Translations under genes and position numbers: made by a program
From: Thermoplasmata archaeon
Lineage (GTDB): Archaea > Thermoplasmatota > Thermoplasmata > Halarchaeoplasmatales > Halarchaeoplasmataceae
Length of the DNA: 64,000 bases
Direction: 5' to 3'
Assembly (NCBI GenBank): GCA_003560595.1
Contig: PWKY01000066.1
Span: 226 to 64,225 of the forward strand
Shown: piece by piece, positions 10,881-56,734 of the stretch
Layout: each line of letters starts with the position of its first letter
Position numbering within the stretch: position 1 is the first letter of the stretch
The notes under the pieces: model-generated
What the model was told of the DNA's origin: nothing
Database searches by the model: none
The model's input: the letters and a program-made list of their open reading frames with translations, nothing else

Positions 10881-13484
10881 CTATTTCATTTTTGATTCTA
10901 TATGATCGATGACCTGGTGTATCTCACACGGTTGCACAACGATCAGATCTCCTTCTTTTGCCATCTCAAATCCGGCTTCTATGGCTTCTATCTCATCGAT
11001 TATCACCGTTACGCGATCTTCCGATAAACCAGCTTCTAAAACACCTTGTTTTACCAACTCCGCAGTTTCTCCGATGTTACGATACCTGGGGTCTGCATCG
11101 TTTATGATCACACGGTCGTATATCTTCCCGATACCCCTTCCAAAGTCGATGATATCTTCCGTCGGGCGGTTCCCAGTTCCCGAACATATAGTTATCTTTT
11201 CATTATCTGTTAGCTCATCCAATATCTTTGATATAGCTTCGACAGCGGGTCTGTTGTGTCCGTAGTCTATCATGACTTTGATCTTACCAACATCCATTAT
11301 GTTCATCCTTCCAGGATTTTGGTTGGTAGATGACTGGAAGGTCAAAAGCCCGCTTTTGATAGATTCGATGTCTATATCAAGGGCAAAGCATGAGGCAACT
11401 GCGGCTAATGAGTTCTGCAAGTTGAAGGCAGCTTTACCCTTAAATGCTATGGGTATATTAGCCACCTCGACCACCTTCCAAACGCTCTCACCTTTCTTTA
11501 TAACTATCCTATCGTCATCGACGGTTACAACTATACCGCCTTCGGAAAGATGTTCTTTTACTTCATTCATATCTGGGTCTAGTGAAAATAGTATGGTGTC
11601 CGCGTGAACGATATCTTTGTATCTGAACACATTGGGGTCCTCAGCATTGAGCACGGCTTTACCTGAAGCTTTAACGGTTTCCACCACGATACCCTTGAGG
11701 CGAGCCATGTCCCTTATGGTATTGATGCGCCCCTCACCCATGTGGTCCTTTGTGACGTTCAGGAACACGCCCACATCGCTCTCGTAATATCCTAACCCCC
11801 TTCTTAATATACCTCCTCGTGCCACCTCTAACACCGCATGATCAACGGTCTTTTCTTTTAGAACAAATTTTGCCCCCTGTGGTCCGCTAAAATCCCCCTC
11901 TTTCAATAGATGATCGCCTCTAAACAAACCGTCAGTACATGCGACGCCTACGTTTTTACCACTCAACATCAAGATATGGGCTATCAATCTGACTGTGGTG
12001 GTTTTTCCGTTGGTCCCTGTCACTGCCACTATCGGCACTCTACTCTTTGCTCCTGGTGGAAAGAGCATATCTAACACATACTTGGCAACGTTCCTCCGCT
12101 TCCCCTCATATGGATCCAAATGCATCCGAAATCCAGGTGCTGCGTTCACCTCTATTACCCCTCCATCACCATGCTTTATCGGTTGTTTCATGTCCTGAAC
12201 GATCAGATCGATACCCATAACATCCAAACCGATTATATCGGCGATCCTTTCAGCTAACACCTTATTATTTGGATGTAACGAATCGGTCACATCGGTAGCG
12301 GTCCCCCCCGAGCTTAGATTTGCGGTTGATTTCAGTAACAACTCTTCTCCTTCGGGAAGAACTGTGTCTAAAGTATGGTTATTCTGTTTGAGGATCCTTT
12401 TTGTCATGTAATCTATTTCGATCTTAGTAAGTGTTTTCTCGTGACCTACCCCTCTTCTTGGGTCGCTGTTCAATACCTCTATCAGTTCTTTTATAGATGA
12501 TCTACCATCACCCCTTATGAATGGAGGATCTCTTCTAGCTGCAGCAACAAGCTCTCCATCTATCACCAGCATCCTGTGATCGGCTCCTTTCAAATATTCT
12601 TCGATGACTACATTGGGATCGATCTTTTTAGCTATCTTAAAAGCGAGTTTTAATTCCTCACTATCCTCCACCCTTGAGGAGATCCCTCGTCCATGGTTAC
12701 CTATATTCGGTTTTACAGCTACTGGATAACCTGATCTCTTTGCCATGCTTAAAGCCTCCTCTATAGTTTTGACCGTCCCCCCTCGGGGAACGGGTATGCC
12801 CGCTTCTTCAAGGATATCTTTCGTATTTTTCTTATCATCGGCGATCTCAACGGCGATGGCGGAAGTGTTCTCGGTCATACTGGCTTGCACCCTCTTTTGA
12901 TAAGAACCATGGCCCAGCTGGACGTAGCTGTGCTGGTTCAGCCTTATATAAGGTATACCCCTGCGGTATGCTTCACTTACTATGGATTTTGTAGTAGGCC
13001 CAAGCATATTCTGGTCCCGAAGGTACTTCAATTTTTTTAATACCTCTTCGATATCCGGTTCCTCCCCCTTCGTCAAGGCTTTAACTACTCTTACTGCTTC
13101 TTTACCTGCTTCGATGCCGGCGTCTTCATCTCTGTACCTGAAAGCTATTTCGTATATCCCATGTTGGTCAGTAGACATAGTTTTTCCGAAACCTACATCC
13201 ATGTTGGCTAGGCACTGCAGTTCTATGGCCACATGTTCAACTATATGTCCTAACCATGTACCCAATTCCACTCGTTCCAAGAAACCTCCTTCGTATCCCC
13301 GGCTACAGCGATGGGCTTTCAATGAGGGTAAGAGTGATTTCAAGCGTTCTACGAAGCCTGGTATCTCATCAGATGGTCTATCTTCGAATTCTTCGATATC
13401 TAAAAGCATGTATACCACCTGATATCGACTAAAGTAATTTGGCCCTCTGAGGGCTCTGATCTCTTGGATCTCTATGATTATCAC
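10881..13484 (-). CDS. cphA: Cyanophycin synthetase (ATP-grasp + Mur-ligase domains)
   Basis: 867 aa. N-terminal IQEIRALRGPNYFS and FLERVELGTWLGHIVEHVAIELQ, an ATP-grasp core, then the Mur-ligase P-loop AVTGTNGKTTTVRLIAHIL. Collinear with bacterial CphA. Confidence 0.85.
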   Translation of the reverse strand: MIIIEIQEIRALRGPNYFSRYQVVYMLLDIEEFEDRPSDEIPGFVERLKSLLPSLKAHRCSRGYEGGFLERVELGTWLGHIVEHVAIELQCLANMDVGFGKTMSTDQHGIYEIAFRYRDEDAGIEAGKEAVRVVKALTKGEEPDIEEVLKKLKYLRDQNMLGPTTKSIVSEAYRRGIPYIRLNQHSYVQLGHGSYQKRVQASMTENTSAIAVEIADDKKNTKDILEEAGIPVPRGGTVKTIEEALSMAKRSGYPVAVKPNIGNHGRGISSRVEDSEELKLAFKIAKKIDPNVVIEEYLKGADHRMLVIDGELVAAARRDPPFIRGDGRSSIKELIEVLNSDPRRGVGHEKTLTKIEIDYMTKRILKQNNHTLDTVLPEGEELLLKSTANLSSGGTATDVTDSLHPNNKVLAERIADIIGLDVMGIDLIVQDMKQPIKHGDGGVIEVNAAPGFRMHLDPYEGKRRNVAKYVLDMLFPPGAKSRVPIVAVTGTNGKTTTVRLIAHILMLSGKNVGVACTDGLFRGDHLLKEGDFSGPQGAKFVLKEKTVDHAVLEVARGGILRRGLGYYESDVGVFLNVTKDHMGEGRINTIRDMARLKGIVVETVKASGKAVLNAEDPNVFRYKDIVHADTILFSLDPDMNEVKEHLSEGGIVVTVDDDRIVIKKGESVWKVVEVANIPIAFKGKAAFNLQNSLAAVASCFALDIDIESIKSGLLTFQSSTNQNPGRMNIMDVGKIKVMIDYGHNRPAVEAISKILDELTDNEKITICSGTGNRPTEDIIDFGRGIGKIYDRVIINDADPRYRNIGETAELVKQGVLEAGLSEDRVTVIIDEIEAIEAGFEMAKEGDLIVVQPCEIHQVIDHIESKMK

Positions 13485-45029: not shown

Positions 45030-48000
45030 TTGTCAGGTAAATACCTCAAAGCGAGGCAACTCGCAAAAGAGATGGAAAAGCTCGCAAAAAAGACTGCCGA
45101 GGATAAGAAGGAAGCCTTAGATAATCTAGAGAAGGCCGAAGAACTACTAGATGATTCAAAGGAGCTGGGGGCAGATGTTGAGGGGGCTGAAGAACTCATA
45201 GATGAAGCCCGGGAACACTTCGAAGAAAAGGAATTAGAAAAGACGATCGAAAAGGTAGAAAAAGGGTTGGAAATAATTCGTGAAGCCAATAGTAAGAGGG
45301 TCACCGATCTGATGAAAGGTACCGAAGAACTTCATGAAATGATCGCAGAGGAAGATAGATACAAAGAGTCTCTAGAACTCCTTGATCAGGCTAAGGAGGC
45401 GATGGAGGATGATGATTTTAAAGGTGCCATGGAAAAGGCAAAAGAATCTTTGGACCTAGCTCTGCTCGAGATACAAGAAAAACTGACTGATGAATTCGCC
45501 ACCTTGGATTCAATGGTCATCTCTCTTGAAGATAAAGGGGAAGATCCAGAAGAGATCGAAACCAAGGTGCAGGAAGCTAGAGATGCCATGGAACAAGATG
45601 ATTTCCAGACCGCCGTATCACTGGTTAATGAATGCAAAGAATTACTGCATAAGGACTTGAAGGCATTGGTCGAGGAAGAGATAAATAAAGTGAAGAAGCA
45701 GGAGGAGATGATAAGAGAGGGTGGAGGAACAACTGTAGATATCGAAGAGATGATAAGCAAAGCTAGAAACCGTATCAAGGATGGTCACTTTGAAAGTGCC
45801 GTAGAATTCGTCGATGACGCAAAAAATGAATTGAACGAGGCCATGGAAGCTGTAGTTGAAAAGGTGGAAGGCGATATCGAAGGATCACTCAATGAAGCTA
45901 AAGAGATCGAATGTGACATAAGCAAGATAGACGAGATGAGAGAAAGGCTCGTCGACTTAAAATATGAAGGTAAATACAGCGAAGCTTATGAACATATCCA
46001 GAAAATAATTGACAAGCTCGAGGAATTAAAATTCCAAAGAGTGTTAAAGACCATCGCGGAGTCCAGAGACCATTTTATCAAGGGCAAAGAGATAGGGATA
46101 GACATATCTGAACCCATGGGTCTTTTGAATAAGGCGAGGACCTCTCTAAAGGAAGGGGATCATAAAGGAGCATTGGATTGGGCAAATGCCGGGAGACAGA
46201 AGGTAAGGGAGCTTGTGGAGGAACACGAACGCATCGAGATGCGTATAGCCGAAGCCAAGAGAGTAAAGCAGGACCTTGTTGATATAGGCATAGAGCTAAC
46301 CGAAGCAACCAGTATAATATCAGCATCTGAGGAGGCCCTAGGAAAAAAGGATTACGGCGCAGCCGAAGAAAAGCTGGAAGAATTCGACGGATATATCGAT
46401 AAAAATGCCTATGAAGAGATAATGAAACTGGTAGAAGATCTAGAGGTCAAATTAAATATCGCAGAAGATATGGATCTAGATGTTGCTGAGTACACTGAAA
46501 GTTTGGAAGTGGCCATCGCAAATACTAAATCAGCCGAGTATGCAAAGGCTGGTAAGATAACCTTAGATACTTTAGAAGAACTGAATGATCTGATAGAAGA
46601 AGCACTGGATAAACGTATAAAAAACATGAGAGAACTCGTACAAAAGACACAGCAAGAGATGACTGAGGAAGAGGACCTGGAAGAGTTGGAGAAAGTAGAG
46701 GGATTAGTAGAGGAAGTAGAGAGTGCGTTCGATGAAAGCGATTATCGCAAAGCTCACGATTGTTTAAAGAACGTATCTTCCGAGATCAAAAGATGGAGGG
46801 TTGGAGAGGCGGAAGAAAGATATACACGTGTCAAGGAACTGGTCGGTTTGGTCAAAGAACTCGAGATTGAAAATATAGATGAGGATGCGTATGAAGAAAG
46901 GCTTGAGAAAGTCACTGAGGCATTCGACGATGACGATTATACCAACGTTGTAAAGCTCTCCGATGAGATGCTTGATAGTCTTAATAAAGAGTTCGAAAGC
47001 ACTGCTGAGGAAGTATTCTCCCGGGCCAAGATGGAGGCCGTTAAAGCAAAGAAGGCCGGGGTCGATATCGAAGATCTAAGAAGCAGACTGATCGACTGTA
47101 AGAAACTCATACGAAATCAGGACTTTACCTTAGCGATAAGGAATTCCTTGAAGGTCGAAGAGGACGCTAAAAGGATGACGAAAAAAAGAAAATCCAGTTA
47201 CGATCTTATATCCTCTTTATCTACAACTTTAACCAAGCTCAGAAAGAAGGGAGAGATCGAAGATATAACTCCTGCTAAGGAATTATTACTTAAAGCAAAG
47301 ACCAGTTTCCAGGATAAAGATTATACTCAAGCTGAAAATTTGGCACTACAGGCTAAAGAAAAGATAGGCGAACTCACAGCAAAGAGCGAATTCGAATCGA
47401 AACTCAGGAAGCTTCGGGAAAACCTAGAGGAAGCCAATGCTCTTGGTATCGACACTACAGATATAGAACTTGATCTAGATGAAGTAACCTCAATTATGAA
47501 AGAAGGAGATATCGAAGAAGCTGTGGAGGGTATAAGAGAGGCTCAGGAGAATATAAAGGAAAAGATGAGTGATTTTGTAAAACCTGAGATCGAACGCACC
47601 CGTGACATAATCAACTCTGCTAACAACATCGGTGTTGACGTATCTACTCCTGAAGCCATACTTGAAGAGGTCGAGAGTTTATGGGAAGCTGGTGACTTCT
47701 CAAAAGCTTTGACCGAGATAGAAGAATGTAAACGAGAGATCGAGGGCATCAAGAACAAAAGCAAACGTGCAGCAAGTGGTGTAAAACGTGTAAAAGATAG
47801 GATATCAAAGGCCAAGGATCTTAATGCGGATGTTAAAGAACCGGAAAAATACATGAATCAAGCTATAAAAGCACTGAAGGAAGACAGGTATGAAGATTCA
47901 ATCAAATTCACAAAAAAGGCAGAGGAGAGTGTTGAAGAGGCTGAGATGGTTAGGGTTTACAGCATACTGGAAACCTTCAATAAGAAAATAGCAGAAGTAA

Positions 48001-49394
48001 GAAAGGAAGGAGTGAACACCGCCTTCGCAGATAACCTGATGAAGCGTGCTGAAAAAGCCATGGATGCAGGTAAATACCACGAAGCGATCAACTTGGCTAT
48101 GCAGAGTGAAGGGGAGGTAGAGAGGATAGAACTGCAGAAGGATATCGCAAAAAGGAGTATCTCTACAACTCAAAAGAAGATCGAGGATGCCAAGGAAGAA
48201 GGCATAAAGGTAGGCGACGCAAAAAAACTATTAGACCAGGCAAAACAAGCATACAAAGGTGGCTTTTACGTAAAGGCATTCGATAACGCAGTTAAAAGCG
48301 GAGACGACGTCAACCATGTACTCAAAGCACATCAGGAGGTATCAGAAAGATTAGAGTCACTGCCCAAACTGATAGATGCCATGGATGGGCTTGAAGTAGG
48401 GGAAAAAGAATTACAAAAACGATTTGAAGACATCAAACGTTCTATGAGTAGAGGAAGGTACACCAAGGCTTTAGAAACCATCAAAGAAAACGAGAAAAGT
48501 TTGGAAGAAGTCAAAGAGCGTTTACATGATAAAATAGATGAAATCGAAAAAACTGTAAATAATTATCAGGATCAGGGAAAAGAAGTGGGGTCCGCATCTG
48601 AGTTACTTCAAAACGCAAAAGGGAACGTAGATATGGGTGAGTTGATCGAAGCGTGTAACCAGATACAAAGTGCTAAAAAGGAGTTCGGAGGAGATGCTGT
48701 AGAAGGGTATCAAAAATATATCGGCGAGGCTAAAGAATTGATACAGATGGCTAAGAAGTTCGGAGCATCCATCACAGATGCTCAAGGGCTGATCAAGGAG
48801 GCCACTTCTTTGGAAGGGGAAGATATATCTGGTGCTAGAGATAAGGCCCACGAAGCACTAGAGTGCATAGAAAAGTCTTTAGAACCCTACAGTCCCAATA
48901 TATCCTTATCTTCAAAAGCCAAGCTTCAGAAGGGAGATTGGAATACTATCAAAGTCGAATTTAAAAATACTGGTAGAGGGGTCGCGAAAAGTCCCGAGCT
49001 ATCCGTGTCAGGCGGCGAATTGAAAAAAGTTGATCTACCAGCCATGCTCAAGGCCGATGAGGAATTGGAATTAGAAATTAAGTTGAAACCCATCGATGAA
49101 GTAGTTACTCTTACCGCTTTGGGAACTCGAATATTCGACCAAAAAGAACTGACCGATGAAGAAGAGATCGAAGTTGTTGAAAAGTTGTACGGATTTGTAG
49201 AGGCGGAGGGAGGAGAGCACTGCAATATATGCGGTGGTACGATAAAAGAAGGGTTAGAGATAATCCGATGTAGTTGTGGAGAAACCATTCATAAACCGTG
49301 TGGGGAAAGGGAAGGTAAATGCCCGAACTGCGGGGTAGAATTGAAGGAAAAGAAAAAGAAGAAGGCATCTAAACGGGTGGCTTTGAAGATATGA
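45030..49394 (+). CDS. Giant (1454 aa) acidic helical-repeat protein: about 18 tandem TPR/MIT-like helical-hairpin units separated by coiled coil, with a C-terminal C4HC3 RING/PHD-like zinc finger and a poly-Lys tail
   Basis: Recurrent [LI]G[IVA]D[IV]s..e.ll..A.......GD[FY]..A......A unit about every 35-40 residues. C-terminus HCNICGGTIKEGLEIIRCSCGETIHKPCGEREGKCPNCG. TTG start in the track; first in-frame ATG at 45072. Confidence 0.6.
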   Translation: MSGKYLKARQLAKEMEKLAKKTAEDKKEALDNLEKAEELLDDSKELGADVEGAEELIDEAREHFEEKELEKTIEKVEKGLEIIREANSKRVTDLMKGTEELHEMIAEEDRYKESLELLDQAKEAMEDDDFKGAMEKAKESLDLALLEIQEKLTDEFATLDSMVISLEDKGEDPEEIETKVQEARDAMEQDDFQTAVSLVNECKELLHKDLKALVEEEINKVKKQEEMIREGGGTTVDIEEMISKARNRIKDGHFESAVEFVDDAKNELNEAMEAVVEKVEGDIEGSLNEAKEIECDISKIDEMRERLVDLKYEGKYSEAYEHIQKIIDKLEELKFQRVLKTIAESRDHFIKGKEIGIDISEPMGLLNKARTSLKEGDHKGALDWANAGRQKVRELVEEHERIEMRIAEAKRVKQDLVDIGIELTEATSIISASEEALGKKDYGAAEEKLEEFDGYIDKNAYEEIMKLVEDLEVKLNIAEDMDLDVAEYTESLEVAIANTKSAEYAKAGKITLDTLEELNDLIEEALDKRIKNMRELVQKTQQEMTEEEDLEELEKVEGLVEEVESAFDESDYRKAHDCLKNVSSEIKRWRVGEAEERYTRVKELVGLVKELEIENIDEDAYEERLEKVTEAFDDDDYTNVVKLSDEMLDSLNKEFESTAEEVFSRAKMEAVKAKKAGVDIEDLRSRLIDCKKLIRNQDFTLAIRNSLKVEEDAKRMTKKRKSSYDLISSLSTTLTKLRKKGEIEDITPAKELLLKAKTSFQDKDYTQAENLALQAKEKIGELTAKSEFESKLRKLRENLEEANALGIDTTDIELDLDEVTSIMKEGDIEEAVEGIREAQENIKEKMSDFVKPEIERTRDIINSANNIGVDVSTPEAILEEVESLWEAGDFSKALTEIEECKREIEGIKNKSKRAASGVKRVKDRISKAKDLNADVKEPEKYMNQAIKALKEDRYEDSIKFTKKAEESVEEAEMVRVYSILETFNKKIAEVRKEGVNTAFADNLMKRAEKAMDAGKYHEAINLAMQSEGEVERIELQKDIAKRSISTTQKKIEDAKEEGIKVGDAKKLLDQAKQAYKGGFYVKAFDNAVKSGDDVNHVLKAHQEVSERLESLPKLIDAMDGLEVGEKELQKRFEDIKRSMSRGRYTKALETIKENEKSLEEVKERLHDKIDEIEKTVNNYQDQGKEVGSASELLQNAKGNVDMGELIEACNQIQSAKKEFGGDAVEGYQKYIGEAKELIQMAKKFGASITDAQGLIKEATSLEGEDISGARDKAHEALECIEKSLEPYSPNISLSSKAKLQKGDWNTIKVEFKNTGRGVAKSPELSVSGGELKKVDLPAMLKADEELELEIKLKPIDEVVTLTALGTRIFDQKELTDEEEIEVVEKLYGFVEAEGGEHCNICGGTIKEGLEIIRCSCGETIHKPCGEREGKCPNCGVELKEKKKKKASKRVALKI

Positions 49395-52455: not shown

Positions 52456-52911
52456 TTGATGAAGCAGTGTCCCTCATGTTCCCGGATGGTCGAAGAGTTT
52501 TCTGATCGATGTCCAACCTGTGGTATGGTCATGATGCCTTCTAAAGAACCAAGCAAGTATCCTGAGGTAGCCGGTGTTTTGATGGTGGTGGCAGCTTTGA
52601 TCGCTATCTTATTTGCCATCTCTGCGATCATGGGTTTAGGTGAGGTGGTCGAACAGGTTCAGCCCGAGCTGCCCGAAGAATTGGATACGGATTTTTTTGA
52701 AACGATACTCAACGCCTGCTTTGTTCTTATCTCCGTATTTGGTGTAGTCCTTTTAGTTGGAGGTTTTCTAGCCTATAATCGAAAGAGCTGGCTAATGGTC
52801 ATGGTATGCGCGATAATAGGAATATTTTCCATAGGTTTTTTCTTGATCTCATCTGTTTTATCTATAGTAGCTCTGATATTAATCGTTATGAGTAAGGATG
52901 AATTTCAATGA
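52456..52911 (+). CDS. Membrane protein with N-terminal CPxC-x12-CPxCG zinc ribbon (first of three consecutive zinc-ribbon paralogs)
   Basis: CPSCSRMVEEFSDRCPTCG followed by three hydrophobic helices. Confidence 0.55.
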   Translation: MMKQCPSCSRMVEEFSDRCPTCGMVMMPSKEPSKYPEVAGVLMVVAALIAILFAISAIMGLGEVVEQVQPELPEELDTDFFETILNACFVLISVFGVVLLVGGFLAYNRKSWLMVMVCAIIGIFSIGFFLISSVLSIVALILIVMSKDEFQ

Positions 52912-52972
52912 AGAGCAAAAGTTATAAAACCCTCATTCTTTATCCCAAACGCAGAAGAAAAGGTGAGTTATT

Positions 52973-53830
52973 TTGGTAGAACAAGGTGAAATAAAATGTC
53001 CAGTATGCGACTCTTTGTTAGATAAAGACAGCAGGAATTGTCCTTCATGTGGGTTGACTCGCAGCCTTATCGACATGGAAAAAAATATGGATGAGGACCC
53101 AGTTCTAGATCTTATGGGAGATATAATCGATGATATAACCGATGATAGATTAAAGGAGAGTGAAGATGAGATCTTTAATATTGTGAAGAAATTGAACAAC
53201 TCTAAAGAATTAAATGGTGATGAGACCGTAGAAGTGACTGGTGATGAGACCGTAGAAGTGACTGGTGATGAGACCGTAGAATTGACCGGTGATGAGACCG
53301 TAGAAGTGACTGGTGATGAGACCGTAGAATTGACCGGTGATGAGACCGTAGAAGAAGTGGTGATCTTTGAGTGCCCAATTTGTTCTGCAGAGGTGGAGGA
53401 AACCGATTCTGAATGTCCAGGGTGTGGGGCTATATTTGAAGACGATGAAGAAGACATCGAGGAGTTATTGGATGAAGAGTTATCTAACGCAAGGAACGGT
53501 CTGGTAGAGATCAGGGATCTACCGATTTCTCCGGATGCTTTGAAGGACTTGGTAAAGCAGTCGGTGACGATGAAAAAGGAAGGGGACCTAGAAAGAGCCT
53601 TAGAGAAGGCTGTTGAAGCGAACGACTTACGCCATAAGTTAGAAGAATTCGTTAACATACTTTCAGATTCCAAAAAGATGCTGAAAAAGATGAAAGAGAA
53701 TGGAATGGATTATATGGGTCACATGAAAGATTTAAAGGACTCAAAAAATATGGTAGAACTCGGAGACGTACATGGTGGACTGGAATCTTCACGGCAAACA
53801 TATACCGAAATATTAAAAAAAATTGGTTGA
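52973..53830 (+). CDS. Zinc-ribbon / acidic-repeat / coiled-coil protein (paralog of the next gene)
   Basis: CPVCDSLLDKDSRNCPSCG, then 6x GDETVEVT repeats, a second ribbon CPICSAEVEETDSECPGCG, then one helical repeat unit and a coiled coil. TTG start. Confidence 0.6.
   Translation: MVEQGEIKCPVCDSLLDKDSRNCPSCGLTRSLIDMEKNMDEDPVLDLMGDIIDDITDDRLKESEDEIFNIVKKLNNSKELNGDETVEVTGDETVEVTGDETVELTGDETVEVTGDETVELTGDETVEEVVIFECPICSAEVEETDSECPGCGAIFEDDEEDIEELLDEELSNARNGLVEIRDLPISPDALKDLVKQSVTMKKEGDLERALEKAVEANDLRHKLEEFVNILSDSKKMLKKMKENGMDYMGHMKDLKDSKNMVELGDVHGGLESSRQTYTEILKKIG
53215..53360 (+). repeat. 24-bp tandem repeat x6 (GGTGATGAGACCGTAGAAGTGACT), coding for GDETVE[VL]T
   Basis: Read directly; the variants differ only by gtg/ttg. 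Confidence 0.9.
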
Positions 53831-54130
53831 TGGGGAGAATATTATTCCACCGCATTTATAGCATCAGCTATCACGATAGGATCTCTCTATATCACTCCTT
53901 TACTATGGGGTTCAAGCCAGATATCCATTTTGTTTCTGGCTTTGGCTGTTGTATTGTTCATACTCGTATTGATATCTCCATTGATATTGATCTTATCATA
54001 CCTATCTTCATTGGCGACACACCGTTTCTTGAAGGATACGTCACCGTCAACACAGCTGACAGACCTTTAAAATTGGTAATAGAACCAAAATCTAAATACA
54101 GGGCTTTTACTTAATCTATGCCGTACAGAG

Positions 54131-56734
54131 GTGCAGAAACTGAGCGAAAACAAGGGTATCATCTGCCCAGTATGCAAAACCGAGATACCGGATGAGTTGG
54201 AGGAGTGCCCTAGCTGTGGCCTTGATAAGATACTCATCGAGCTTGAAGAGGGAGAGGATAACGATGAATACGTCGAGAACTTAGAGAAACTATTAGCCGA
54301 CGAACTAGACGACGATCTTTTGGATCTGGAGGATGATCTAGATGAGTTAGACTTGGACGATCTAGATGATGAATCACTGGACGATATATTGGGATTAGAA
54401 GAGTCAGACGATATATCGGAATTAGAAGAGTCAGACGATATATCGGAATTAGAAGAGTCAGACGATATATCGGGATTAGAGGAGTCAGACGATATATCGG
54501 AATTAGAAGAGTCAGACGATATATCGGGATTAGAAGAGTCAGACGATATATCGGAATTAGAAGAGTCAGACGATATATCGGAATTAGAAGAGTCAGACGA
54601 TATATCGGAATTAGAAGAGTCAGACGATATATCGGAATTAGAGGAGTCAGCTGATATATCGGAATTAGAAGAGTCAGTTGATATATCGGAATTAGAAGAG
54701 TCAGCTGATATATCGGGATTAGAAGAGTCAGACGATATATCGGAATTAGAGGAGGAGGTAGAGCAAGACGATCTTCTGTTGGGATTAGAGGATGAGGTGG
54801 AAGATATATCCGAAGAAGAGCTTCTGAAGGAGCTAGAGGAAGAACTTGAGGTATCGGATGAAGTGGTGTACGAATGTCCAACATGCGGTCACCATTTAAA
54901 GGAAGAGGACAAAAAGTGTTCTTCCTGCGGAACGGTTTTTGAAGACTCAGAAGAAGAACTTGAAGATGAGCTCAGTCTGTTAGAACAAACCCTTGAGGAT
55001 CTAGCTGAAGATGAGTTGGAACCGACCTCGGAAGATGAGCAGGAAGTTATAGAGATAATGGAGGAGATCCAACGATTCATAAAAGATCTGGAAGAAGAAC
55101 CGATAAAATTAGATGTGGTACGCCAGCTTTATGAACAAGTTGAAGGGGAAAAAGCGAAGGGCAACATCGAATCAGCCTCACGTCTCGGATTGGAAGCCTT
55201 AAAAGTATGCGAGAACATGGAGCGCTTTTTGGATAGGAGCCGAACACTGAAAAAAGAGCTTACCTTTTTCAAAAAAGTAGGTCTGAACTACGATCATTAT
55301 GTAAGTGAACTGAACTCCGCTAGAAGGTCTGTCGAATCAGGTCTTACCAAGAAGGGATTGGAACGGGTAGATAAGTTGATCGAGAAAGCGGAGTCAAAGA
55401 AAAACAACTATGAGAAATTACACGATACCAAGCAAAACATCAACGATGTGGTATCTAACCTAAATCAGATATTGAGCTCCGCTAAATCTTTGAAGATGCC
55501 TTTGGAATCAGAAAGGGAGTTGATTTCAAATGCTCTAGTGGCCTCCAAAGACGGTGATGTACAAAAGGCCTTAGATTGGCTATTAAAAGCTAGAGAACGC
55601 TCTATAGATAAGATAGAGGATACCATATCTCAGAATATACGGGATTTTGAAGAGAAGGTCCACGAGTTGAGAGCAGATAATAGAGATAAATTAGAAGATA
55701 TGTTGATGAAAGTTAGAGATGCTAAGGTCGAAGGGAACTATATCCGAGCGGGTAAACTTATAGGCCGAGTGAATAAGTTGGTTGAAGGGACATTAAAGGA
55801 AGATAACGGGGAACTAGACGCTTTAAAAGACTTGATCGATGCTGCGGTATCCATCGGCGTAGATACAACCGCGTGCATTGAACACTATCAAAAGGCGATC
55901 GATTCCATGGACCCTAGAAGAAGAAAGATACACATCAACAACGCCAAGAGACATCTCACGAAACGGTTACCACCTAAATTACAGTCAGCCATGAAAGAAT
56001 CCTTGATAAAGCTAGAGAAGGCGCGAGAAAATGAAAAAAACATCTCCAAGCCGGTGACCTATTTAAAACAGGCCAACCTGAACGTCAAGAAAAAAAATTA
56101 CCTTAAAGCCTTGGAGTACATCAAGGTATTCAACGATAAAATACGGCCGATGCTGGAAGAAGAGGAAGAAAAAGAAGAGGTAAAGGAAGCCGGCGTATTA
56201 CGCATACAAAAGAAATTGAAGAAAGAACCAAAACCCACTAAAACCATCGATCTAAAAAAGACCAAAACCATCCCGAGGGATCTGATGAAAGGTTCAACAT
56301 ACCTTTTTACCGAAACAGACCCAGTTGAAGCCTTTAAGATGGCCAAAAAAAAGGTCGATGAAGGTATAAGAGGTATCTGCGTTACCAGACAGTACCCTGA
56401 TAAGGTGAAATCAAGATATAATATGAGGGATGTCAGAATAATATGGTTATCGAATATAGACCAAGCCGATGCGATCAAACCTAAGGCATTGGATGATCTG
56501 AGCTTGGAGATGGAGGATTTCCTAAAAGATGAAGGTGGATTGATACTGCTTGATGGGTTGGAATATTTGATATCAAATAACGACTTCAAAATTGTATTCC
56601 ATGTTATACAATCTATCAAAGACCAAGTTGCCATCTCCGATTCCATACTTATACTTACATTAACGCCGGATACACTGGAAAAACACCAGATAAGCCTTTT
56701 GGAAAAAGAAGTCGATGAAACCTATCATCTTTAA
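54131..56734 (+). CDS. Zinc-ribbon / LEESDDISE-repeat / coiled-coil protein with a C-terminal DUF835-like domain (867 aa)
   Basis: ICPVCKTEIPDELEECPSCG, 13x 9-aa acidic repeats, a second ribbon ECPTCGHHLKEEDKKCSSCG, helical repeats of the giant-protein type, and a C-terminal GSTYLFTE..GICVTRQYP..IIWLSN..LLDGLEYLISNNDF..ILILTLTPDTL block. GTG start. Confidence 0.6.
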   Translation: MQKLSENKGIICPVCKTEIPDELEECPSCGLDKILIELEEGEDNDEYVENLEKLLADELDDDLLDLEDDLDELDLDDLDDESLDDILGLEESDDISELEESDDISELEESDDISGLEESDDISELEESDDISGLEESDDISELEESDDISELEESDDISELEESDDISELEESADISELEESVDISELEESADISGLEESDDISELEEEVEQDDLLLGLEDEVEDISEEELLKELEEELEVSDEVVYECPTCGHHLKEEDKKCSSCGTVFEDSEEELEDELSLLEQTLEDLAEDELEPTSEDEQEVIEIMEEIQRFIKDLEEEPIKLDVVRQLYEQVEGEKAKGNIESASRLGLEALKVCENMERFLDRSRTLKKELTFFKKVGLNYDHYVSELNSARRSVESGLTKKGLERVDKLIEKAESKKNNYEKLHDTKQNINDVVSNLNQILSSAKSLKMPLESERELISNALVASKDGDVQKALDWLLKARERSIDKIEDTISQNIRDFEEKVHELRADNRDKLEDMLMKVRDAKVEGNYIRAGKLIGRVNKLVEGTLKEDNGELDALKDLIDAAVSIGVDTTACIEHYQKAIDSMDPRRRKIHINNAKRHLTKRLPPKLQSAMKESLIKLEKARENEKNISKPVTYLKQANLNVKKKNYLKALEYIKVFNDKIRPMLEEEEEKEEVKEAGVLRIQKKLKKEPKPTKTIDLKKTKTIPRDLMKGSTYLFTETDPVEAFKMAKKKVDEGIRGICVTRQYPDKVKSRYNMRDVRIIWLSNIDQADAIKPKALDDLSLEMEDFLKDEGGLILLDGLEYLISNNDFKIVFHVIQSIKDQVAISDSILILTLTPDTLEKHQISLLEKEVDETYHL
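54392..54750 (+). repeat. 27-bp tandem repeat x13 (ATTAGAAGAGTCAGACGATATATCGGA with minor variants), coding for LEESDDIS[EG]
   Basis: Read directly; the variants are gac to gct/gtt and gaa to gga. Confidence 0.9.

Follow-up and report, generated by a model that had tools for sequence, protein, structure and literature searches.

What has placed two near-perfect tandem DNA arrays, one of 27-bp and one of 24-bp units, in two neighbouring genes of a Thermoplasmata archaeon, and what would they do to the proteins that they encode? The question is raised by a stretch of 64,000 nucleotides from assembly GCA_003560595.1 (contig PWKY01000066.1, positions 226 to 64,225 of the forward strand), which is termed the window here and supplies all coordinates below. 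The larger array lies in a gene for an 867-residue protein that ends in a DUF835 domain, and the smaller in what appears to be a truncated duplicate of that gene. Both arrays are genuine coding minisatellites, i.e. amino-acid tandem repeats, with high unit identity, unit lengths that are multiples of three and an in-frame position in real genes. We consider it probable that they are products of slippage or unequal recombination in an acidic linker that is constrained by its composition and not by its sequence. The arrays and their flanking copies are as follows.

54392 to 54742, forward strand: the 27-bp array, 13 full in-frame units covering residues 88-204 of the 867-residue protein and encoding [EG]LEES[DAV]DIS (Tandem Repeats Finder (TRF), unit table, AlphaFold).

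54365 to 54391, forward strand: degenerate unit on the 5' side of the 27-bp array, DDESLDDIL, with 16 of 27 positions matching the consensus.

54743 to 54769, forward strand: degenerate partial unit on the 3' side of the 27-bp array, ELEEEVEQD, with 15 of 27 positions matching the consensus.

53213 to 53356, forward strand: the 24-bp array, six in-frame units encoding [NT]GDETVE[VLE], in the open reading frame (ORF) 52973-53830 of the forward strand (TRF, unit table).

An earlier sequence-only reading had described 13 near-perfect in-frame copies of the 27-bp unit ending at 54750 and six copies of the 24-bp unit ending at 53360; the unit lengths and copy numbers are borne out and only the ends move. 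TRF places the first array at 54380-54754 (period 27, 13.9 copies, 94% matches, no indels, score 652), and its full units close at 54742. Six of the 13 units are identical (GAATTAGAAGAGTCAGACGATATATCG, encoding ELEESDDIS), four are of a G type in which GGA gives GLEESDDIS, one of these also carrying a synonymous GAG, and three adjacent units have GCT, GTT and GCT, giving ELEES[A/V]DIS through a change of D to A or V. The two GAA-to-GAG changes in the array are both synonymous. Mean pairwise identity of the units is 94.3%, and the degenerate unit at 54365-54391 is likely the seed motif from which the array grew.

The second array was located by TRF at 53215-53354 (period 24, 5.8 copies, 93% matches, score 252), with its units ending at 53356 and a mean pairwise identity of 91.4%. 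It has a 48-bp higher-order periodicity in which GTG-ACT alternates with TTG-ACC, so a 48-bp double unit was duplicated, and the longest stretch that recurs exactly within it, shifted by 48, measures 67 bp. A further short repeat (12 bp x2.3, GATATAACCGAT, encoding DIIDDITDD) occupies 53120-53147 in the same linker, 5' of the 24-bp array, and may be an incipient array.

These are the sole strong tandem arrays in the 64-kb window, where TRF at a score of at least 40 returned only three other rows, all two-copy and with scores no higher than 49, one of them the 12-bp repeat just mentioned; both fall within the roughly 1.5% of the window that codes for the linkers between zinc ribbons. With isoelectric points (pI) of 4.16 and 4.33, the two repeat proteins rank with the most acidic of the window, whose other proteins are only moderately acidic (pI mostly around 5). 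Rfam and tRNA scans of the window gave no matches, and nothing in them suggests an RNA role for the repeats. A scan of the window for bacterial promoters and terminators stayed at background level, the models being bacterial and inapplicable to an archaeon. ORFs antisense to the arrays (54234-54884, 52933-53673 and 53202-53378, all on the reverse strand) were rejected as shadow ORFs, since their translations are periodic nonsense and they are not genes.

Since the source is evidently a contig of a metagenome-assembled genome (MAG), and near-identical tandem units are a classic cause of collapse or expansion, the arrays or their copy numbers might have been created or mis-sized by short-read metagenome assembly. 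We judge this quite unlikely as an account of the arrays. They are internal to a long contig and not at its end, they are exactly in frame, and degenerate partial copies flank the 27-bp array. Variant units are interspersed, such that the longest exact self-repeats are 87 bp in the 27-bp array and the 67 bp already mentioned in the 24-bp array, both resolvable by 150-bp reads and large k-mers. Independent assemblies of orthologs also behave likewise at the homologous site. A gross artefact is therefore unlikely, although an error of one or two units may have entered in the run of three identical units.

The protein that carries the 27-bp array is identical to the public NCBI-derived protein P0001, and its parts can be laid out as follows.

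54131 to 56734, forward strand: host gene, 867 residues, comprising zinc ribbon 1, an acidic disordered linker, zinc ribbon 2, six helical hairpins, a lysine-rich linker and DUF835 (ORF, Pfam, AlphaFold).

54164 to 54217, forward strand: predicted zinc ribbon 1, C12, C15, C26 and C29, with a predicted local distance difference test score (pLDDT) of about 84 (residues ~10-30), kept in orthologs.

54218 to 54874, forward strand: acidic linker, 219 residues, 50% D+E with three K+R, net charge -107, mostly at pLDDT <50.

54875 to 54928, forward strand: predicted zinc ribbon 2, C249, C252, C263 and C266, matched by Pfam Zn_ribbon_3 and Zn_Ribbon_1 at residues 247-270.

55031 to 56176, forward strand: six helical hairpins, residues 301-682, each a short helix and a long helix of 34-48 residues, pLDDT about 90.

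56288 to 56734, forward strand: DUF835 domain, a RecA/KaiC-like alpha/beta fold without a Walker A motif (Pfam PF05763, Foldseek).

The motif CPxC...CPxCG occurs four times over the two host proteins, marking predicted zinc ribbons, and the second ribbon of the 867-residue protein passes the Pfam cutoffs for Zn_ribbon_3 and Zn_Ribbon_1 (30.6 bits against 27 and 28.2 bits against 25, respectively). That the arrays are in frame, lie between two zinc ribbons and are extremely acidic, as the sequence-only reading held, is upheld by the CxxC positions and by net charges of -58 for the 117-residue array and -107 for the whole linker, of which about 102 residues are left when the array is subtracted. 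In the AlphaFold model, built on a 15-sequence alignment, residues 87-227, which include the array, have no secondary structure and a pLDDT of 29-44; in contrast, both zinc ribbons (the second, residues about 246-270, at a pLDDT of about 75), the helical region and DUF835 (residues 720-867, at about 86) are folded confidently. The lysine-rich segment at 679-711 is also modelled as disordered, with a pLDDT below 50. The linker is thus predicted to be an intrinsically disordered acidic tether, the composition of which appears to be kept while its sequence is not, and a role as a spacer would fit this description. No signal peptide or surface features were found in the host protein, and its N-terminal zinc ribbons are of a cytoplasmic type.

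At the other end of the protein, PF05763 matches residues 736-860 with 107.7 bits against a cutoff of 33.1 (E-value 5.2e-31). Foldseek searches of the PDB with the alpha/beta domain returned FlaH (4yds), many KaiC chains, RecA and Rho with a probability of 1.0, although with weak E-values of 1.5e-3 to 3e-2, and the domain contains no GK[ST] motif. The DUF835 match, the KaiC-like fold and the missing GK[ST] agree with the published class of DUF835, described as an inactivated KaiC domain (iKaiC) of archaeal signalling proteins, which Methanomicrobia and Thermoplasmata use as an output domain (Galperin et al. 2018, PMC5847659). Neither a KaiC-like ATPase nor a second DUF835 gene is encoded within the window. 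Going by what is known of the families, DUF835 would dock onto KaiC-type ATPase assemblies, and any view of what the zinc ribbons bind is likewise drawn from family knowledge.

The 24-bp array belongs to a shorter neighbour, immediately upstream, with these features.

52973 to 53830, forward strand: truncated paralog, 285 residues from a TTG start, comprising zinc ribbon 1, a linker with the 24-bp array, zinc ribbon 2 and helical hairpins, DUF835 being absent.

52997 to 53050, forward strand: predicted zinc ribbon 1 of the paralog, C9, C12, C23 and C26.

53372 to 53425, forward strand: predicted zinc ribbon 2 of the paralog, C134, C137, C148 and C151.

The sequence-only reading had called this neighbour a paralog. 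BLASTP comparison of the large and small proteins supports the relationship over zinc ribbon 1 (E-value 9e-7) and over zinc ribbon 2 with the first helical hairpins (29% identity, E-value 2e-13), but only in part: judged by sequence, the small protein is the counterpart of about the N-terminal 410 residues of the large one and lacks the C-terminal half with DUF835. Its second ribbon falls just under the Pfam cutoff (26.8 against 27). No separate ortholog of the 285-residue paralog was found in any related locus, and a word-indexed search of 5.8 billion proteins, swamped by low-complexity words, returned only the protein itself; it appears, on sequence comparison, to be a lineage-specific partial duplicate.

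The first zinc ribbon of the paralog requires the TTG start at 52973. The public gene call P0155 (247 residues) begins further in, at Met 39, and leaves this ribbon out (window 52973-53088); the longer ORF is probably the right gene call because its first ribbon resembles zinc ribbon 1 of the large protein (E-value 9e-7).

The 8-residue unit of the paralog, read as VTGDETVE, also raises the possibility that the repeat is structured, forming on trimerisation the rungs of a triple-stranded beta-helix like that of T4 gp5/VgrG. Pfam Gp5_C (PF06715), which describes an 8-residue VxGxxxxx repeat, is borderline at 20.7 bits for the whole protein (cutoff 20.4), Gp5_trimer_C matches residues 75-125 with an E-value of 7.7e-4, and the alternating V/T pattern would favour beta strands. 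However, no individual Gp5_C stretch reaches threshold, the match falls on low-complexity periodic sequence, each 8-residue unit has a net charge of -3 and the repeat is found in no homolog. The AlphaFold monomer, a single-sequence model, gives a pLDDT of 37-50 across the array with isolated bridges only and is too poor to use. We regard a beta-helix as very unlikely.

Low-complexity acidic and K/E-rich words overwhelmed the word-indexed homolog searches, which gave 4, 2 and 1 proteins, and orthologs were drawn from scans of one-genome-per-species contigs and of metagenome contigs, from pattern scans and from an index-free HMMER search. The latter, over 1.84 billion representatives, returned 2542 DUF835-type relatives, of which about a dozen also have the helical region. 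In the contig scans, full-length relatives were found only in Thermoplasmata MAGs and in sediment metagenomes from Kulunda, Cock Soda Lake and other hypersaline sites. Soda-lake MAGs of this kind are related to the uncultured KTK 4A Thermoplasmata group (PMC6146748), to which the window would also belong. Orthology is supported by synteny, with an ABC1-type kinase downstream and, in several loci, a beta-eliminating lyase beyond it. The nearest relative of the 867-residue protein (isolate B1Sed10_107R1) shares 54% amino acid identity with it, against 79.5% for the ABC1 neighbour in the same relative, which makes the DUF835 protein the faster-evolving of the two. In the closest relative (L002, L003 and L006), the DUF835 gene is separated from the ABC1 kinase by an inserted gene for an 859-861-residue AAA_16 and TPR protein (MalT/STAND-like), which the window lacks, its DUF835 and ABC1 genes being adjacent.

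The helical hairpins are the best-conserved part of the host protein apart from DUF835, and both regions align well across orthologs, whereas the segments between the ribbons are unalignable. The latter range in length from 83 residues (L007 and L008) through 138 (L006) and 206 (L001) to the 219 of the window, and are 43-50% D+E in all of the orthologs compared. Tandem repeats in the acidic segment differ from locus to locus.

Window: 27 bp, 13 copies.

L001: 57 bp, 3.9 copies (95%).

L031: 57 bp, 4.9 copies.

L032: 54 bp, 3.3-3.7 copies.

L006 and L002: 42 bp, 2.3 copies.

L007: 30 bp, 2.3 copies (100%).

L008 and L009: none.

The unit of the window is common to no ortholog, and the nearest relative, at 54% identity, has an unrelated 42-bp x2.3 repeat in a 138-residue linker, which sustains the earlier suggestion that the expansion is recent. 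Distant members also have periodic low-complexity stretches (EEPE[IV]IPE[LP]K in P0008, PVEVEPVRE in P0011). Over 45 DUF835 loci, tandem-array density was 0.124 per kb inside DUF835 ORFs and 0.042 per kb in their flanks, a ~3-fold difference.

Some variation in the wider family lies outside the inter-ribbon linker. Distant DUF835 genes from unrelated archaeal MAGs carry in-frame arrays near DUF835, namely L023 5482-5941 (15 bp x30.7, just upstream of DUF835), L022 6567-6674 (24 bp x4.5) and L020 7263-7377, and L022 has a further array outside the DUF835 ORF (12085-12273, 45 bp x4.2); a tendency to repeats in the wider family is suggested by these arrays. In P0015, a distant ortholog of 905 residues, a Pro/Glu-rich periodic segment (EIPPPPP...EE repeats, residues ~560-790) replaces the short lysine-rich linker, and the family thus varies at a second linker, the one that leads from the helical region to DUF835. 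P0037 (754 residues) and P0050 (591 residues) are relatives of the helical region with five to seven serial zinc ribbons and no DUF835, and possibly a helix-hairpin-helix-like N-terminus as judged by eye; the number of zinc ribbons itself thus varies across the wider family.

Has the number of units changed within closely related lineages? The sequence-only reading had expected the arrays to be length-polymorphic and proposed a comparison of copy number across related genomes. Repeat-unit indels were seen in two ortholog pairs; for the window's own species, the collections searched yielded no second genome. L001 and L031, from different soda-lake sediment samples, share 97.5-98% DNA identity, and the protein that they encode is the same on either side of the array, within which L031 has gained two 17-residue variant units (+34 residues) and lost one 19-residue unit relative to L001. 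L007 (HAP25) and L008 (CSSed162cmB_145) are MAGs that were deposited under separate isolate names; across some 8.4 kb they share 99.3-99.9% identity and have a single indel between them, 30 bp duplicated perfectly in tandem (EEDIDKEKEY) in the acidic segment that directly follows zinc ribbon 2.

Taking these observations together, the favoured explanation can be set out as a sequence of steps. A disordered, strongly acidic tether would join two zinc-ribbon modules at the N-terminus of the host protein and of its truncated duplicate, the host being a cytoplasmic scaffold-type protein that combines six helical hairpins with a degenerate, non-catalytic KaiC-like DUF835. Selection on the tether would act on its composition (about 45-50% D/E and almost no K/R), with a wide range of lengths tolerated and no selection on the sequence. 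Whole units would have been gained and lost recently through replication slippage or unequal recombination, a process that would recur independently in each lineage, and the outcome would be a changed reach or length, and a changed charge, of the tether between the zinc ribbons. The grounds for inferring slippage or recombination are that the units are near-identical, that a 48-bp higher-order unit was duplicated and that partial copies lie on the flanks, and whole-unit duplications and deletions would be tolerated because unit lengths divisible by three keep the downstream frame.

The same divisibility bears on the idea of a contingency locus, in which changes of repeat number would switch the genes on and off by phase variation. 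The high slippage potential of near-perfect repeats speaks for this idea, but the units of the window (27 and 24 bp) and of the orthologs (57, 54, 42 and 30 bp) are all multiples of three and lie inside ORFs, such that the frame never shifts, and the host protein begins with cytoplasmic-type zinc ribbons and has no signal peptide or surface features. Phase variation was rejected, and the arrays are almost certainly not switches of this kind.

The main rival to a compositionally constrained tether is the amplification of a functional motif. Here the 9-residue unit would be a short linear motif selected for multivalency, serving to dock a partner or, through its Ser in acidic surroundings, to accept phosphate, and copy number would tune the avidity or threshold of scaffold assembly. 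The array itself offers some encouragement, in that EESDDIS resembles the adjacent DDESLDDIL with one residue deleted and the core LEES.DIS is kept although three of the four variant types alter the amino acid. Similar motifs also recur elsewhere: [DE]ES[L]D[DE] is present in the linkers of P0013, P0063 and L032, where it too is amplified, within an 18-residue unit, and LGL[DE][DE] is found in about half of the orthologs. The ES-D-D motif is, however, absent from the closest orthologs (L006, L007/L008 and L009), other lineages have amplified very different units, such as DIDLDDELDLDEDEGDL and EEDIDKEKEY, and short motif matches arise easily by chance in sequence as acidic as this. No partner or kinase was identified, and the syntenic neighbour is of the ABC1/UbiB type, which is not known as a protein kinase; both points count against this view. 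Selected multivalency is on balance an unlikely account of the arrays. More specifically, a conserved acidic motif (of the DDESLDDI-LGLEE type) could have been amplified in this lineage, through the 13-fold array, into a multivalent docking or multi-site phospho-acceptor platform that sets the assembly threshold of a KaiC-like signalling hub via DUF835; strain-to-strain change in copy number would then be a rapid tuning knob, though we think this version improbable.

Several points also weigh against slippage in a sequence-indifferent tether. The recurrence in several ortholog linkers of [DE]ES[L]D[DE] and LGL[DE][DE], which resemble the array unit, means that the linker sequence may not be entirely unconstrained. 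For the window's own two arrays, copy-number variation is a prediction: no second genome of its species was found in the collections searched (clusters, metagenome contigs and protein searches), the 90% protein cluster of the 867-residue protein has one member, an exact-protein contig look-up gave no matches, and the 25-mer core of the 27-bp unit had no match in a scan of all metagenome contigs. The comparisons rest on metagenome assemblies throughout, and the L031 array holds an ambiguous base. The 3-fold enrichment of arrays in DUF835 ORFs comes from small counts (9 versus 11 arrays) in loci that are partly redundant, and the host protein has no characterised function.

The surroundings of the two genes are of a chromosomal type, with genes for eIF2-alpha, a NAPRT-type enzyme, the ABC1 kinase and a DRG-type GTPase in the window. 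Three consecutive forward-strand genes (52456-52911, 52973-53830 and 54131-56734) each start with a CPxC...CPxCG zinc ribbon. The first of these encodes a 151-residue protein, the rest of which is hydrophobic and membrane-type by eye; Pfam gave no match for it, and no such gene lies beside the orthologs. The 300-bp gap at 53831-54130 holds a 46-residue, strongly hydrophobic ORF (53930-54070, forward strand; MFLALAVVLFILVLISPLILILSYL...) and an overlapping 95-residue ORF for which no family match was found. Further upstream, 45030-49394 on the forward strand encodes a 1454-residue protein, 24% acidic, that consists almost wholly of ~75-residue helical units with a recurring '...GD[YF]xxA...' motif; the DUF835 protein has units of the same kind in its helical region (weak BLASTP match, E-value 6e-4), and the C-terminus of the 1454-residue protein has a Cys-rich module resembling a RING or a zinc ribbon (Pfam Prok-RING_1, 21 bits, below cutoff).

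In this uncultured, halo-alkaliphilic lineage of Thermoplasmata, the locus stands as a chromosomal hotspot at which repeats expand in frame, and two pairs of orthologs show the polymorphism directly; among archaea, attention to pervasive amino-acid tandem repeats has until now centred mainly on Borg elements. In soda-lake metagenomes, strains could be told apart by such arrays, and these sites call for caution in assemblies and gene calls, as the public call of the paralog without its first zinc ribbon illustrates. The host family, with its order of zinc ribbon, acidic tether, zinc ribbon, hairpins and inactivated KaiC, may also offer an entry to archaeal KaiC-type signalling hubs.

How does this locus compare with known systems? 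The C-terminal linker of FtsZ and the Ser-Asp stalk of staphylococcal ClfA/Sdr proteins are disordered spacers in which sequence is unconstrained and length matters. As in these, the acidic linker lies between folded modules, keeps its composition and not its sequence and shows large differences in length, and the Sdr stalk is also encoded by length-polymorphic in-frame DNA repeats, which are Ser/Asp-rich. The proteins, their cellular location and the domain of life are different, and the importance of length, which is known for those systems, would hold here by likeness.

With the DUF835/iKaiC family the host protein shares a C-terminal domain far above threshold, a predicted KaiC/FlaH/RecA-like fold and the absence of a P-loop. 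Described DUF835 architectures include REC-DUF835 and REC-PAS-PAS-DUF835 (PMC5847659), unlike which the N-terminal part of the host protein consists of a zinc ribbon, an acidic linker, a second zinc ribbon and six helical hairpins; a limited search of the DUF835 literature did not find this architecture described.

The closest parallel for the arrays themselves is provided by the Borg elements of Methanoperedens, in which near-perfect in-frame amino-acid tandem repeats (aaTRs) give disordered regions and have originated independently in homologs, with amino-acid compositions that are alike (Schoelmerich et al. 2023, PMC9879509). Among the Borg aaTR hotspots is one with a zinc-ribbon protein subfamily, in which seven different units occur (PMC9879509). 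The window shares with these the near-perfect tandem repeats inside archaeal ORFs, units divisible by three, (predicted) disorder and flanking partial repeats. Its arrays are nevertheless not of the Borg type, as their context is chromosomal with housekeeping neighbours, there are two in 64 kb where Borg aaTRs are pervasive, A makes up 38.2% of the array against 36.6% of the rest of the gene where Borg units are A-enriched, and the host proteins look cytoplasmic, unlike the extracellular and membrane proteins that bear aaTRs in Borgs. The arrays follow a well-known evolutionary pattern, of which they are a new example in an uncharacterised archaeal protein family.

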